From a virus (Duplodnaviria; Heunggongvirae; Uroviricota; Caudoviricetes), in IMG/VR virus record IMGVR_UViG_2529292882_000014, positions 1-42,566 of that record: a stretch of 42,566 nucleotides of DNA. One strand, given 5' to 3'. The notes below the pieces were generated by a model. It was not told where the DNA came from. It saw only the letters and a list, made by a program, of their open reading frames with translations, and did not search any database. This document shows positions 2,906-42,566 of the stretch, in pieces (positions within the stretch are counted from its first letter, which is position 1; every line of letters begins with the position of its first letter). Position numbers and translations under genes: made by a program.

Positions 2906-3184
2906 ATGAATTGGACAATAAAAATGATAAAGTATAGAGCTGGTATAGATGGTTTAAGAGCAGTCGCTGTTGTGATGTTTCACGCTTTCCCAAGCGCATT
3001 TTCTGGAGAGTTCAATGGGTTTGATTTATTTTTCATAATATCTAGCCTTTTAATTTCAAGTATTATTTTTAAAAATTTAAATAGCGGTAAATTTTCTTTT
3101 TCCGATTTTTACTTAAGAAGGATTAAGCGGATTTTTACACTCTTACTCAGATCATATATAAGATTAGATTGCAAGTCTAGTTAG
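2906..3184 (+). pseudogene. Truncated N-terminal fragment of a second AT3 (OafA/OatA-like) acyltransferase
   Basis: 92-aa ORF with the AT3 N-terminal signature (GIDGLRAVAVVMFHAF ... FYLRRIKRIF) ending prematurely; the transmembrane core is absent. Confidence 0.5.
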
Positions 3185-28972: not shown

Positions 28973-29188
28973 TCACTTTAAATCCAGGTTCCGGATAATT
29001 CTGTCACACTGAAAATCAGTATCGATTTTAACCAACCGGCGAAGAACGCGGTCACGCGGATAGCTCCGTGGCTTAGGGGCGTTTTTCTGTCTCTCGCCAG
29101 TCGGAAGTCTGGAAGCAGACCAGTACCGCTTTGCACGACCAATGTTCTCCTGAAAGTCGGCGCGGACAAGCTCAGCTATCGTACTCAT
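28973..29188 (-). CDS. Hypothetical nin-region protein (NinA position)
   Basis: 71-aa ORF; overlaps a second ORF (28978..29169) in another frame; this frame chosen because its start is translationally coupled to the upstream small peptide. Confidence 0.45.
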   Translation of the reverse strand: MSTIAELVRADFQENIGRAKRYWSASRLPTGERQKNAPKPRSYPRDRVLRRLVKIDTDFQCDRIIRNLDLK

Positions 29189-40181: not shown

Positions 40182-40277
40182 AAGCGAAGCTTATACATAT
40201 CTTTTACATCAGCAATCTATTGTTAATCTCCAATCAATGTTACGTTGTCATCTCACTCATGCTTTGGAGGTAGTGAT

Positions 40278-40457
40278 ATGTCTTGTCCAAAATGCGGTTC
40301 TGGAAATATTGCAAAAGAAAAAACAATGCGTGGATGGTCTGATGATTATGTGTGCTGCGATTGCGGATACAACGACTCTAAAGACGCATTTGGAGAGCGT
40401 GGTAAAAACGAGTTTGTCAAAATTAATAAAGAACGCGAAGGCAACGAAAAAAGCTAA
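40278..40457 (+). CDS. Small zinc-ribbon protein
   Basis: 59 aa from MSCPKCGSGN with GGAGG SD; CxxC ... CxxC. Confidence 0.45.
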   Translation: MSCPKCGSGNIAKEKTMRGWSDDYVCCDCGYNDSKDAFGERGKNEFVKINKEREGNEKS

Positions 40458-40522
40458 TTTATTTATTCATATATGAAAACAATGTAACCAATATTCGAAT
40501 TGAAGAACTGAAAGAACACCAA

Positions 40523-40544
40523 GCCGCCTGATGGCGGTTTTTTA
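40523..40544 (+). terminator. Rho-independent terminator at the end of the PL operon
   Basis: GCCGCC-TGAT-GGCGG hairpin followed by TTTTTTATT. Confidence 0.55.
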
Positions 40545-40553
40545 TTGCCTGAT

Positions 40554-40569
40554 TTGCAGGTTCGATTCC
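40554..40569 (+). other. tRNA-like fragment (T-stem/T-loop segment)
   Basis: TTGCAGGTTCGATTCC contains the canonical T-loop GGTTCGATTCC; diverges afterwards; not a complete tRNA. Confidence 0.5.
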
Positions 40570-40588
40570 CTATTCGGAGATAGCACTC

Positions 40589-40789
40589 ATGCAACACGAA
40601 CTACAACCTGATTCACTGGTTGATTTGAAATTCATCATGGCTGATACTGGCTTTGGTAAAACCTTCATCTACGACCGGATTAAGTCCGGCGACCTGCCTA
40701 AAGCCAAAGTTATCCACGGTCGAGCAAGATGGTTATATCGTGACCATTGTGAATTCAAAAATAAGCTCTTAAGCCGCGCCAATGGGTAA
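40589..40789 (+). CDS. xis: AlpA-family DNA-binding protein, probable excisionase/Xis
   Basis: 66 aa; LVDLKFIMADTGFGKTFIYDRIKSGDLPKAKVIHGRARWL typical of AlpA/Xis HTH proteins; last phage gene before the att core. Confidence 0.7.
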   Translation: MQHELQPDSLVDLKFIMADTGFGKTFIYDRIKSGDLPKAKVIHGRARWLYRDHCEFKNKLLSRANG

Positions 40790-40862
40790 AATAGCGGGTA
40801 AAATATTTTTCACATCTAAAAAACACCATTCCAATCAATCCCCTGCCGCGTCAAGTAGATGT

Positions 40863-40877
40863 CTGCAGGGGACACCA
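40863..40877 (+). other. Probable attR core: tRNA 3'-end-like sequence ending in CCA
   Basis: CTGCAGGGGACACCA; preceded by an 8-bp inverted repeat (TCCCCTGC ... GCAGGGGA); lies between xis and the host-like permease. Confidence 0.55.
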
Positions 40878-41318
40878 GATACCCTTCAAACGAAATCTAC
40901 CTTCACCCCGTAAAAGATGGGTTTGGCAGCACACTTGCCTTATATCTACTCATTTTTACTGCAACAGGTTGAAATCTCAGCACTGTCAGAAAGCGCTGAT
41001 GACTAAACAGCCCTGGGCCGGGCGATGTAACCATCACACAGAATCCTGATAGCGAAATATGGCGTGACTCGATACTTCACTCCGCAATGCATTCCTTGAT
41101 GAATTCGCAGGACCGTGATACACGGGACAGGTCACTGAATGACGACAATGTCCTGGAAATCAGCGAACCGCGCATCTGAAGTACATTTGAGCGACTGTAC
41201 CAGAACATGAATGAGGCGTTTGGATTAGGCGATTATTAGCAGGGCTAAGCATTTTACTATTATTATTTTCCGGTTGAGGGATATAGAGCTATCGACAACA
41301 ACCGGAAAAAGTTTACGT

Positions 41319-42566
41319 CTATATTGCTGAAGGTACAGGCGTTTCCATAACTATTTGCTCGCGTTTTTTACTCAAGAAGAAAATGCCAAATAGCAACATC
41401 AGGCAGACAATACCCGAAATTGCGAAGAAAACTGTCTGGTAGCCTGCGTGGTCAAAGAGTATCCCAGTCGGCGTTGAAAGCAGCACAATCCCAAGCGAAC
41501 TGGCAATTTGAAAACCAATCAGAAAGATCGTCGACGACAGGCGCTTATCAAAGTTTGCCACGCTGTATTTGAAGACGGATATGACACAAAGTGGAACCTC
41601 AATGGCATGTAACAACTTCACTAATGAAATAATCCAGGGGTTAACGAACAGCGCGCAGGAAAGGATACGCAACGCCATAATCACAACTCCGATAAGTAAT
41701 GCATTTTTTGGCCCTACCCGATTCACAAAGAAAGGAATAATCGCCATGCACAGCGCTTCGAGTACCACCTGGAATGAGTTGAGATAACCATACAGGCGCG
41801 TTCCTACATCGTGTGATTCGAATAAACCTGCATAAAAGACAGGAAAAAGTTGTTGATCAAAAATGTTATAGAAAGACCACGTCCCCACAATAAATATGAC
41901 GAAAACCCAGAAGTTTCGATCCTTGAAAACTGCGATAAAATCCTCTTTTTTTACCCCTCCCGCATCTGCCGCTACGCACTGGTGATCCTTATCTTTAAAA
42001 CGCATGTTGATCATCATAAATACAGCGCCAAATAGCGAGACCAACCAGAAGTTGATATGGGGACTGATACTAAAAAATATGCCGGCAAAGAACGCGCCAA
42101 TAGCATAGCCAAAAGATCCCCAGGCGCGCGCTGTTCCATATTCGAAATGAAAATTTCGCGCCATTTTTTCGGTGAAGCTATCAAGCAAACCGCATCCCGC
42201 CAGATACCCCAAGCCAAAAAATAGCGCCCCCAGAATTAGACCTACAGAAAAATTGCTTTGCAGTAACGGTTCATAAACGTAAATCATAAACGGTCCGGTC
42301 AAGACCAGGATGAAACTCATACACCAGATGAGCGGTTTCTTCAGACCGAGTTTATCCTGAACGATGCCGTAGAACATCATAAATAGAATGCTGGTAAACT
42401 GGTTGACCGAATAAAGTGTACCTAATTCCGTCCCTGTCAACCCTAGATGTCCTTTCAGCCAAATAGCGTATAACGACCACCACAGCGACCAGGAAATAAA
42501 AAAGAGAAATGAGTAACTGGATGCAAAACGATAGTACGCATTTCTGAATGGAATATTCAGTGCCAT
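41319..42566 (-). CDS. MFS transporter of the LacY/oligosaccharide:H+ symporter family (host gene flanking the prophage)
   Basis: 415 aa, 12 predicted TM segments, clear LacY-like sequence pattern; gene start coincides with the window end. Confidence 0.8.
   Translation of the reverse strand: MALNIPFRNAYYRFASSYSFLFFISWSLWWSLYAIWLKGHLGLTGTELGTLYSVNQFTSILFMMFYGIVQDKLGLKKPLIWCMSFILVLTGPFMIYVYEPLLQSNFSVGLILGALFFGLGYLAGCGLLDSFTEKMARNFHFEYGTARAWGSFGYAIGAFFAGIFFSISPHINFWLVSLFGAVFMMINMRFKDKDHQCVAADAGGVKKEDFIAVFKDRNFWVFVIFIVGTWSFYNIFDQQLFPVFYAGLFESHDVGTRLYGYLNSFQVVLEALCMAIIPFFVNRVGPKNALLIGVVIMALRILSCALFVNPWIISLVKLLHAIEVPLCVISVFKYSVANFDKRLSSTIFLIGFQIASSLGIVLLSTPTGILFDHAGYQTVFFAISGIVCLMLLFGIFFLSKKREQIVMETPVPSAI

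Follow-up and report, generated by a model that had tools for sequence, protein, structure and literature searches.

A conserved tRNA-like element upstream of the excisionase gene torI at the right end of a prophage integrated in argW

The window, as we call the whole 42,566-nt stretch of DNA that was analysed, opens with the integrase gene intS and runs through the right end of the prophage, where torI encodes the recombination directionality factor (RDF), into host DNA with a cscB-like permease gene. The features to which we refer throughout are the following.

1-1158, + strand: intS, tyrosine integrase, left prophage end (open reading frame; Pfam Arm-DNA-bind_3, Phage_int_M and Phage_integrase)
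40484-40551, + strand: lambdoid 'boundary sequence' with an intrinsic terminator (terminator scan; matches to lambdoid phages)
40554-40569, + strand: 16-mer TTGCAGGTTCGATTCC, equal to argW nt 46-61, unique in the window and with no mismatch
40576-40579, + strand: Shine-Dalgarno (SD) GGAG of torI, 6 nt past the upstream element (read from the sequence)
40589-40789, + strand: torI, 66-aa RDF (excisionase) (open reading frame; annotated torI in matching genomes)
40766-40900, + strand: counterpart of a published 135-bp attR substrate (left limit from the primer, right limit approximate)
40784-40792 and 40797-40805, + strand: two GGGTAAAAT repeats, putative IntS arm-type sites of the P arm (read from the sequence)
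40851-40863, + strand: TCAAGTAGATGTC, putative left core arm of attP/attR (C-type site), from a table of left arms set against tRNA CAGGTTCGATTCC
40863-40877, + strand: attR core CTGCAGGGGACACCA, equal to argW nt 61-75 (pawZ in K-12)
40864-40870, + strand: TGCAGGG, probable 7-bp overlap, placed by the inverted repeat GATGTC/GACACC
40878-42566, no strand: host DNA right of the prophage (empty-site construct matched at 100% identity)
41319-42566, - strand: cscB-like LacY-family permease (Pfam LacY_symp, E 1e-193; annotated as an oligosaccharide/sucrose MFS transporter)

The integrase gene is annotated as intS in genomes that are 99.9% identical, and its product shares 99% protein identity with the integrases of CUS-3 and Sf6. 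Over its full length the torI product matches the 'Tor inhibition protein' (PDB 1Z4H, E 6.6e-43). The terminator upstream of torI, found by terminator scan, is a stem-loop at 40521-40540 followed by a T run, and the boundary sequence around it matches lambda 29098-29165, the P22 aI terminator, HK022 and 933W at 97-100%. These lambdoid matches all end at window 40547-40551, and the boundary sequence marks where the recombination module meets the early-left genes, at a mosaic joint. An IntS-type integrase, a 66-aa TorI just inside attR and a 15-16-nt argW core, three traits of the KplE1/Sf6/HK620-type module, are present; the region is the right end of such a prophage in argW and of an already-described kind.

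The 15-mer CTGCAGGGGACACCA occurs a single time in the window, downstream of the excisionase gene as the initial annotation had it, although at 73 nt from the stop codon of torI rather than 72. In K-12 the same copy of the attR core is annotated as the pseudogene pawZ, and the published core of the KplE1 module is the 16-nt CTGCAGGGGACACCAT. The boundary between phage and host lies between 40877 and 40878, as set by the sequence of the empty site: the predicted construct, argW fused to window 40878 onward, was found at 100% identity, and 1,471 of the 5,426 genomes searched have one place that covers at least 80% of it. ARAGORN detected no tRNA in the window, which begins exactly at the intS ATG, and the fragments at the right end form no cloverleaf of a tRNA gene or pseudogene, since just 30 of the 75 nt are present, split by 293 bp. 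attL and argW fall just outside the window, to the left of intS. In syntenic genomes a 75-nt tRNA-Arg(CCU) gene, ending in ...AATTGCAGGTTCGATTCCTGCAGGGGACACCA, is found 161 nt upstream of intS. Two of these, 55989 and GPEC87-32-644, have the same right junction as the window and carry an intact argW and a second copy of the core at attL; GPEC87-32-644 holds only a 10-kb remnant. An intact argW with a core at attL is likewise present in LR-06 and PigCaeca_1, which have the same intS (99.9%) and dsd as their right flank. The proposal that the 15-mer is the attR core is borne out by its recurrence at attL and by the empty site, and the opposite outcome, with no tRNA gene upstream and no 15-mer repeat on the left, is contradicted by the argW and 15-mer at attL of the syntenic genomes.

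Joined together, the two fragments are the last 30 nt of the E. coli tRNA-Arg(CCU) gene argW, in which the 16-mer (nt 46-61) and the 15-mer (nt 61-75) adjoin with a 1-nt overlap; their assignment to tRNA-Arg (argW) in the initial annotation proved correct in the syntenic genomes. The T-arm-like 16-mer is also where it had been reported, just upstream of the excisionase gene, and ends 19 nt ahead of the torI ATG. Its conserved part is CAGGTTCGATTCC (40557-40569), with an invariant GTTCGATT at 40560-40567 and, inside it, the TorI-type motif GTTCG at 40560-40564. In argW, CAGGTTCGATTCC is nt 49-61 and stands immediately 5' of TGCAGGG, which makes it the attB sequence adjoining the crossover region. 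A chance match was ruled out by arithmetic and by conservation in relatives: 60 tRNA 16-mers over ~85,000 positions (both strands), divided by 4^16, give an expectation of ~1e-3 matches, a figure that does not yet include the requirements for the correct tRNA and strand and for a position <300 bp from the core. The free phage Sf6 genome and KplE1 of K-12 both carry the 16-mer at the same offset, and it is therefore phage-borne, belonging to the phage module and not a product of this integration.

Downstream of the 16-mer, several features of attR can be set beside published work on KplE1. Primer attR-IHF2 (CTCTTAAGCCGCGCCAATGG; PMC3509656) maps to window 40766-40785, and the 135-bp attR suffices for excision in vitro (PMC3509656). 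Excision by a substrate that does not contain the upstream element counts against the element being needed. Published IntS arm-type sites have TAAA in common; the GGGTAAAAT repeats, a motif that is repeated again ahead of the intS ATG in attL, are probably the IntS arm-type sites of the P arm, and GCGGGTAAAA is kept in all relatives compared. The probable position of the overlap, TGCAGGG, is deduced from the inverted repeat GATGTC/GACACC rather than from a mapped cleavage site, and the putative left core arm is visibly T-arm-like in other lineages, for instance Klebsiella (CAGGTTAGATGTA). With regard to the two origins first suggested for the upstream piece, that of a part of the phage att region holds in so far as it lies in the conserved recombination module, but fails in so far as it lies 197 bp outside the sufficient 135-bp attR (PMC3509656). 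That of a remnant of earlier tandem integration has to be abandoned, the sequence having an unchanged position in free Sf6 and K-12 KplE1 and being kept in many genera.

The E. coli 16-mer is one form of a conserved element, (CAG)GTTCGATTCC, that precedes the RDF start codon by 28-29 nt and is present in about a dozen genera, with the same offset in Enterobacter, Citrobacter, Serratia, Pantoea, Edwardsiella, Hafnia, Cedecea, Erwinia and Salmonella modules, while to its left the lineages have unrelated DNA. Among the compared lineages, which are not phylogenetically independent in the strict sense, the 13-mer has a mean pairwise identity of 0.93, versus 0.50 at third-codon positions of xis and 0.45-0.73 in adjacent columns. 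GGAGAT and the 28-29-nt distance to the ATG are kept in 10 of the 11 lineages, the gap between element and ribosome-binding site is 6-7 nt in the module family, and an unanchored MAFFT alignment also recovers the element. In a second clade with 55 distinct upstream sequences, 37 contain GTTCGATT, which in 35 cases has one and the same offset, and in the Erwinia phage Midgardsormr38 the element is found twice, in tandem. The 80 TorI loci from viral contigs are all 100% identical in protein and hence uninformative on divergence. In the g341c-like clade the entire 32-nt leader is conserved, so that constraint is not peculiar to the element in this group. Roughly one third to one half of lineages are missing the element, and it is dispensable, because Klebsiella, Mixta, Cronobacter, Rahnella, Dryocola, Tatumella and Proteus modules retain an intact RDF gene and P arm without it; decaying copies are also seen (GATTTC, CAAG, L233). 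Judged by these alignments, the element is one maintained by selection.

We think it rather probable that, at this KplE1/Sf6/HK620-type right end in argW, the upstream element is a selected, putative protein-binding site that gates torI, and we envisage the following course of events. IntS joined attP of the phage to the 3' end of argW and so inserted a P22-like prophage. The 15-nt core came to lie at attR (40863-40877), with host DNA from 40878 on, and argW would have stayed intact at attL, to the left of the window. Excision would be directed by TorI, whose gene ends 73 nt short of the core. The element is a built-in part of the module, set 28-29 nt before the RDF start and 6-7 nt before the ribosome-binding site. 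Its sequence is exactly that of the attB stretch (T-stem and T-loop of the tRNA gene) adjoining the crossover region, and it also contains GTTCG, the motif that TorI recognises on attL. We infer that a protein binds here, the core-binding domain of the integrase being the likelier ligand and TorI an alternative or additional one. Once bound, this protein could impede transcription from upstream into torI, or the start of torI translation, and RDF synthesis would thereby be tied to the level of the recombination proteins.

Several observations bear on the integrase as the ligand. The element stays tRNA-type where (A/G)TTAC has replaced GTTCG at the RDF sites (phiEt88, L230 and L232), and also where the arm-type repeat is a different one, GGGCATAA. 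Compared with a B-type half-site, it has the same sequence as the attB arm adjoining the putative overlap, and the attP left arms are related to it. Integrases normally bind an isolated core-type half-site only weakly, and a search for a partner across a 7-bp spacer gave none that was convincing (GAGATAG versus GACACCA, only 3 of 7 matches); conservation of the GAGATAG stretch is explained by the SD lying there. IntS relatives of at least 61% identity all use tRNA-Arg(CCU), which leaves no different target tRNA for a covariation comparison; the next relatives are P4-like integrases <40% identical, and the two sampled, YeP5 and VW-6S, have no xis-attP-int layout. We tentatively suggest, as a possibility that we would not yet call probable, that the module family maintains, directly before the RDF gene, a copy of the attB left arm, the T-loop/T-stem DNA on the chromosome to which the core-binding domain of the integrase attaches, and that the integrase, possibly with the RDF, binds this 'attB mimic' and gates RDF synthesis. 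If so, the excision decision would be sensitive to integrase occupancy, and a core-type site would here have a regulatory use not described before.

Binding by the RDF itself, with GTTCG acting in negative autoregulation of torI, seems to us unlikely despite several attractive features. Mapped TorI sites read GTTCG, GTCCG and GATCG (PMC2951348), and the exact GTTCG of the element is the motif of sites I1, I3 and I4 on attL. IntS and TorI both repress intS by binding attL, TorI through such sites, and PtorI is uncharacterised (PMC2951348). In most lineages the P' arms, too, have GTTCG sites whose offsets are conserved, and direct tandem repeats such as that in Midgardsormr38 are typical of RDF sites. 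However, the element does not follow the change in RDF-site specificity: among four phage-form loci with (A/G)TTAC in place of GTTCG at the five conserved P' offsets, whose RDF proteins have diverged, three keep GTTCGATTCC before xis and none has a TTAC-type version of it. The conservation furthermore extends over ATTCC, more than a 5-nt RDF motif needs, the base after GTTCG is A here, where each of the five mapped sites has C or T, and the Midgardsormr38 repeats are spaced by 16 nt, versus 11 nt for sites I3-I5 of the same phage. That the element has no present function and is an inert, decaying remnant of tRNA DNA is a reading we doubt but take seriously. The remnant could descend from a longer ancestral attP-argW identity (T-arm to CCA), split by the gain of xis and the P arm, or from an old aberrant excision that took the T-arm of the tRNA along. 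Identity to the tRNA is in keeping with such a fossil, and the lineage-specific matches together span argW 46-63 (E. coli TTGCAGG..., Serratia/Pantoea ...TTCCTG), the pattern that independent erosion of a longer tRNA-derived segment would leave. The left core arm of attP would be a second, diverged T-arm copy, the element has repeatedly disappeared while xis stayed (in Dryocola through a clean deletion between CTGG repeats), and partly decayed copies exist. Mere decay, on the other hand, sits poorly with a pairwise identity of 93%, compared with 50% at synonymous-like positions and sharply lower values in adjacent columns, with a spacing to SD and ATG that is fixed across genera, and with the tandem duplication in one phage. 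An origin by insertion is without direct support, because no contiguous junction of boundary sequence and 30-mer was found in 5,426 E. coli genomes and because in viral contigs the 30-mer after a non-A base belonged to a complete tRNA gene at 80 of the 80 loci analysed (83 matches), namely tRNA-Arg(CCU) genes with G for A in the variable loop.

Two further readings are less likely. One, which we consider quite improbable, is an expression signal that works without recombination proteins, either a promoter (the putative 'pI' of Sf6 and HK620) or an RNA leader for torI. The Sf6 record places its putative pI over exactly this stretch, where TTGC-N5-TTGC looks, by eye, like cII boxes; an anti-Shine-Dalgarno pairing of GGAG with TTCC in the element is conceivable, alifold predicts pairing between the element and the SD region, and the SD spacing is fixed. 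A sigma-70 scan for -35 and -10 hexamers 16-18 nt apart nevertheless gave no promoter in 40200-41000, although a cII-dependent promoter would escape it, and both the TTGC repeat and the boundary sequence are absent from element-bearing Edwardsiella, Hafnia, Serratia and Erwinia. The consensus fold reaches only -4.5 kcal/mol (alifold) with no compensatory changes, and the leader in the window folds no better than shuffles (z = -0.40). The other is scarcely credible: that the 16-mer is an alternative or the true att core, or the scar of an earlier tandem integration in this strain. Its appeal is that a perfect 16-nt direct repeat brackets the prophage, in argW and before torI, and that the CUS-3 record (CP000711) labels the copies 'attL core' and 'attR core'. 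Yet the phage DNA continues past the 16-mer, with torI and another 293 bp, free Sf6 carries it internally, and genomes 100% identical to the right end of CUS-3 have torI 20 nt past the end of the record. The empty site is joined at the 15-mer and not at the 16-mer, the recombinant argW-5'::16-mer::torI occurs in 0 of 5,426 genomes, and no match in these genomes runs past the 16-mer into a contiguous junction of boundary sequence and 30-mer. A tandem scar fails because IntS crossover inside the 15-16-nt core should be unable to duplicate tRNA sequence 5' of it. Use of the 16-mer as a crossover site, or its origin as a scar, was thus ruled out by its position in Sf6, the lack of recombinants and the empty-site junction.

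The CUS-3 record mistook the 16-mer for the att core; the true crossover site is the adjacent 15-mer, and the record is without torI and the true attR because it was delimited at the 16-mer repeat. The practical correction is that a 16-nt repeat resembling an att core is none, that at least one public phage record is delimited at it, and that delimiting argW prophages by the 'first direct repeat' would repeat the error. Taken alone, the junction adds one more prophage to a well-studied module. The second tRNA-like piece is, on present comparisons, a conserved copy, before the excisionase gene, of the tRNA sequence beside the crossover point. A selected element of 10-13 nt, 6-7 nt from the torI ribosome-binding site and equal to an arm of the chromosomal target of the integrase, is a candidate operator. 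In addition, the switch of RDF sites from GTTCG to (A/G)TTAC at fixed P' positions, together with the divergence of the RDF protein, provides a natural system of RDF-DNA co-evolution.

Reiter in 1989 and Williams in 2002 are said to have described direct repeats of tRNA 3' ends flanking phages and islands inserted in tRNA genes. The 15-mer fits this model, with a phage-supplied 3' end, an intact gene and a fragment at the far junction, but the upstream piece is not predicted by it, lying 5' of the identity block and inside the phage with the RDF gene in between. Lambda Int/Xis has in common with the module of the window a heterobivalent integrase, arm-type repeats and RDF direct repeats next to the core; the boundary sequence with its terminator is, moreover, identical to the one upstream of lambda xis. 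However, xis and int of lambda are adjacent, with attP beyond int, and we know of no description of a core-type half-site copy upstream of lambda xis. Sf6 and HK620 (xis = gp18/HkaC) share with the window ~97-98% nucleotide identity over element, torI and core and the same boundary sequence upstream. They have the order xis, attP, int, which places int and xis at opposite ends of the prophage. In the Sf6 record the stretch of the element appears only as the putative 'pI' promoter, by homology, with its tRNA identity unannotated. CUS-3 (CP000711) shares with the window the integrase (99.2% protein identity), the 16-mer at both ends and the boundary sequence, but its record stops at the 16-mer ('att core'), unlike the window with its torI and attR.

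Also among the closest known systems is KplE1 (CPS-53) of E. coli K-12 (Panis et al. 2007, 2010, 2012), whose layout, argW-attL-intS ... torI-attR, is the same here, as are integrase, RDF, core, P-arm repeats and position in argW. In K-12, too, the identical 16-mer precedes torI by the same distance. Rho-dependent termination reportedly limits read-through into torI, according to Menouni et al. The KplE1 authors hold that excision is controlled mainly via the RDF gene, whose promoter, PtorI, and regulation they had left uncharacterised (PMC2951348). In the KplE1 papers covered (including PMC3509656 and PMC2951348), where sites are mapped only on attL and the 135-bp attR, the upstream element is not mentioned, and a full-text literature search with the sequence of the element found nothing relevant. 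The module of the window belongs to a full-length P22-like prophage of ~40.9 kb, whereas KplE1 is a 10-kb remnant, and its right host flank is csc (LacY-type permease) rather than the dsdC of K-12; as these flanks differ, the core repeat is 15 nt here (CCA|G) and 16 nt in K-12 (CCAT).

The two tRNA-like fragments that the initial annotation had picked out on either side of the excisionase gene torI are real, and each occurs once in the window at the site assigned to it.

Features at the ends of the prophage
1-1158: intS ORF, at the left window end
40521-40540, followed by a T run: stem-loop of an intrinsic terminator upstream of torI
40554-40569: 16-mer TTGCAGGTTCGATTCC, single copy in the window
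40589-40789, plus strand: torI, a 66-aa ORF at the window end
40863-40877: 15-mer CTGCAGGGGACACCA, single copy in the window
Downstream of torI, minus strand: LacY-type permease gene

The torI ORF is the recombination directionality factor (RDF) gene of the KplE1/CPS-53 prophage. Thousands of E. coli genomes annotate it so, and its product gives a full-length match to PDB 1Z4H, 'Tor inhibition protein' (E 6.6e-43). The integrase IntS carries the Arm-DNA-bind_3, Phage_int_M and Phage_integrase domains; its identity to the CUS-3 and Sf6 integrases is 99%. ARAGORN found zero tRNA genes in the window, because the window opens on the first base of the integrase start codon, an A. A syntenic P22-like prophage is present in E. 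coli 55989, bounded by argW-intS and torI-permease, and since argW there reads GTCCTCTTAGTTAAATGGATATAACGAGCCCCTCCTAAGGGCTAATTGCAGGTTCGATTCCTGCAGGGGACACCA, the fragments can be assigned to argW nt 46-61 (16-mer) and 61-75 (15-mer), which adjoin in the tRNA and share one C. The identity suggested earlier, tRNA-Arg argW, was thus correct, both fragments matching the 3' part of the 55989 gene. Directly 5' of the terminator region lies a small zinc-ribbon ORF (40245-40457; CPKCG...CCDCG), called 'Eag protein' in relatives. In the host flank between attR and permease, ~41087-41176 corresponds to a truncated DUF4942-domain pseudogene in the GPEC87-32-644 annotation, which may point to debris of older mobile elements where argW meets csc.

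In 55989, LR-06 and K-12 the attL copy of CTGCAGGGGACACCA is preceded by GATTC and followed by TTTATC, while the attR copy in the window stands between AGATGT and GATACC. The duplicated core of KplE1 has been given as CTGCAGGGGACACCAT (PMC2951348), Kapi1 uses the same integration site (PMC8787464), and the 15-nt attR copy is annotated in K-12 as the pseudogene pawZ. A predicted empty site, the full argW joined directly to window 40878 onward, was found at 100% identity and was at least 80% covered in 1,471 of 5,426 complete genomes; the phage/host junction therefore falls between 40877 and 40878. Both junctions are present in 55989 and GPEC87-32-644, with the same csc-side flank. The repeat at attL, the published core, pawZ and the empty site agree with the earlier proposal that the 15-mer is the attR core, and a tRNA gene and a left-junction repeat exist in every syntenic genome examined, the window itself starting too late to contain them. 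This reading of the 15-mer, already known, and the junction are almost certainly correct.

The upstream piece had been tentatively ascribed to the phage att region or to an earlier tandem integration. An identical 16-mer precedes torI by 19 nt in K-12 KplE1 and in free phage Sf6, so it is phage DNA carried in the virion genome. A 135-bp attR fragment (beginning at a primer that matches window 40766-40785) supports excision in vitro (PMC3509656), and the 16-mer is 197 bp outside this fragment. Furthermore, a crossover within the 15-16-nt core should be unable to duplicate tRNA sequence 5' of that core, and for this reason, and because of its presence in Sf6 and KplE1, we reject a tandem-integration remnant. 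The argW-5'::16-mer::torI junction expected from recombination across the repeat occurred in none of 5,426 genomes, nor did E. coli genomes yield a contiguous junction from the upstream boundary into the 30-mer (the last 30 nt of argW, both fragments joined). Being internal in Sf6, outside the attR substrate and represented in no recombinant junction among the 5,426 genomes, the 16-mer is rejected as a crossover site. The repeat was noticed earlier, in GenBank CP000711 (CUS-3), but misread as the att core: that record begins at the argW 16-mer ('attL core') and ends at the 16-mer before torI ('attR core'; copies at L004 1571-1586 and L005 1-16, the CUS-3 loci, with window counterpart 40554-40569). 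It consequently lacks torI and the true attR. Where genomes match the CUS-3 right end at 100% identity, torI starts 20 nt past the record's stop and is followed by dsdC.

Window 40484-40551, terminator included, is the classic mosaic 'boundary sequence' of lambdoid phages, which also precedes xis in lambda (29098-29165), P22 (aI terminator), HK022, 933W and others. The matches stop at 40547-40551, directly before the 16-mer, and similarity to K-12 starts only ~15 nt 5' of it, which places the 16-mer at the left edge of a shared recombination module. The boundary block (68-78 bp with its terminator) is 97-100% identical to xis-upstream DNA of lambda, P22, HK022, 933W and many Stx phages. In several matched E. 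coli genomes (H118-H128, also H6, H27 and H30) a query of boundary plus 16-mer splits in two over ~410-530 bp, where extra 'hypothetical protein' genes are annotated, which suggests that DNA was inserted between the 16-mer and the terminator region. Where the window has boundary sequence, K-12 ypdJ (L003 10680-10735) and the N-terminal extension of g341c gp19 (L007 2440-2500) have a short ORF fragment (...SLTLDEAC(Q/A)FLKIS) that resembles an N-terminal helix-turn-helix from a different excisionase-type protein and is truncated just 5' of the 16-mer; an older xis may have left it behind. The Sf6 record labels the 16-mer stretch a putative promoter 'pI' by homology, and a sigma-70 scan of that stretch found nothing.

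Further loci were collected through diverged TorI homologues from species-representative genomes, assemblies and phage records. The pattern (C)AGGTTCGATT(C/T)C recurs in Enterobacter, Citrobacter, Serratia, two Pantoea lineages, Edwardsiella, Hafnia, Cedecea, Erwinia (two phages) and Salmonella, 28-29 nt away from the start codon of the RDF gene (Serratia, 35 nt), while left of it the lineages have unrelated DNA. Pairwise identity of the 13-mer CAGGTTCGATTCC averages 0.93 over 11 lineages, compared with 0.50 at RDF third-codon positions and 0.45-0.73 in the adjoining columns; this alignment was anchored on GTTCGATT, whose eight columns are invariant by construction, and an unanchored MAFFT alignment recovered the same block. 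The real evidence of conservation is the recurrence of the 8-mer GTTCGATT at one offset. Of the 55 distinct upstream sequences from another RDF clade, which is more diverged, 37 contain it, 35 at an identical offset, and variants there (CAAG-, CCTG- and TCAG-TTCGATTCC) delimit the invariant part as GTTCGATT(C/T)C. The 16-nt identity in E. coli comprises the conserved core, a semi-conserved TT and one more matching base. Erwinia phage Midgardsormr38 (L203) has a tandem 13-mer pair, CAGGTTCGATTCCcgtCAGGTTCGATTCC, with a period of 16 nt, ~40 nt upstream of xis (852). Two Klebsiella lineages, Mixta, Cronobacter, Rahnella, Dryocola, Tatumella, Proteus and some of the Pantoea modules lack the element, which is therefore dispensable; several of these have the RDF gene close behind the gene upstream. 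A comparison of Dryocola (L180, xis at 3001) with L177 shows the element cleanly gone from in front of xis and the terminator directly adjoining the SD, apparently by deletion between two CTGG repeats (gCCTGG...aaaCTGGAG). Very probably the element is kept by selection and does not serve as a crossover site; it is a conserved cis element of a known module and, as far as we found, has no earlier description.

All compared modules target tRNA-Arg(CCU), and the att core varies in step with the acceptor stem of the host tRNA. Their P arm is collinear: GCGGGTAAAA, ATCCCCTGC, ~12 nt, then (T)TCGATGTn followed by TGCAGGGGAC(A/G)CCA. In attP, the inverted repeat GATGTC/GACACC flanks TGCAGGG, which we infer to be the 7-bp overlap; on that basis the element corresponds to the attB arm adjoining the overlap, a B-type core half-site. 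On the attP side, the left arm is a diverged T-arm copy (CAGGTTAGATGTA in Klebsiella, CAGATTAGATGTT in Cedecea, CTGATTCGATGTA in Midgardsormr38), which fits integrase recognition of T-arm sequence. With this second copy, and with lineage-specific matches that together span argW 46-63, descent from a longer tRNA-derived segment is consistent. No contiguous form was found in the 5,426 E. coli genomes, and among 83 viral contigs with the 30-mer after a non-A base, all 80 loci analysed were full tRNA genes. These 80 contigs (L089-L168), from other taxa, share identical last 30 nt of tRNA-Arg(CCU), with G rather than A in the variable loop, followed by many differing P'-arm-like sequences with repeated (A)GTTCGC motifs; this tRNA end is therefore a widely used integration hot spot. 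In Hafnia (L192), Mixta (L196) and Cedecea (L197), xis, core and integrase gene are contiguous and attP-like, which could reflect tandem elements or a hybrid site; the Hafnia arrangement lies within a 4.87-Mb chromosomal contig, and its P' arm is unlike the IntS type.

The element also contains GTTCG, the motif of the five TorI sites that have been mapped on attL (PMC2951348), and GTTCG-type sites lie at the conserved P'-arm offsets +14, +34, +77, +87 and +97 after the overlap in most lineages (compare Sf6 L006 2187-2355). In phiEt88 (L204), L230, L232 and L233, which have diverged RDF proteins, those five offsets carry (A/G)TTAC, an apparent co-evolutionary switch in RDF-DNA specificity. These loci offer the comparison that best separates integrase from RDF as ligand: GTTCGATTCC stands upstream of xis in three of the four, the fourth having a decayed copy, and a TTAC-type element stands there in none. 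The element is also kept across a change of the arm-type repeat from GGGTAAAA to GGGCATAA. Retained despite both changes, it tracks the invariant tRNA/attB sequence and not those specificities. From sequence comparison, this pattern favours the integrase core-binding domain as putative ligand, or else a fossil. Action at the RNA level is a weak alternative: the consensus fold reaches -4.5 kcal/mol with zero compensatory pairs, and the window leader folds with z = -0.40. We tentatively consider the element a putative binding site for integrase and/or RDF that would modulate torI, a reading to which we give rather less than even weight. In KplE1, IntS and TorI each repress intS through attL binding, and its authors, who termed PtorI uncharacterised, proposed that excision control acts on the RDF gene (PMC2951348).
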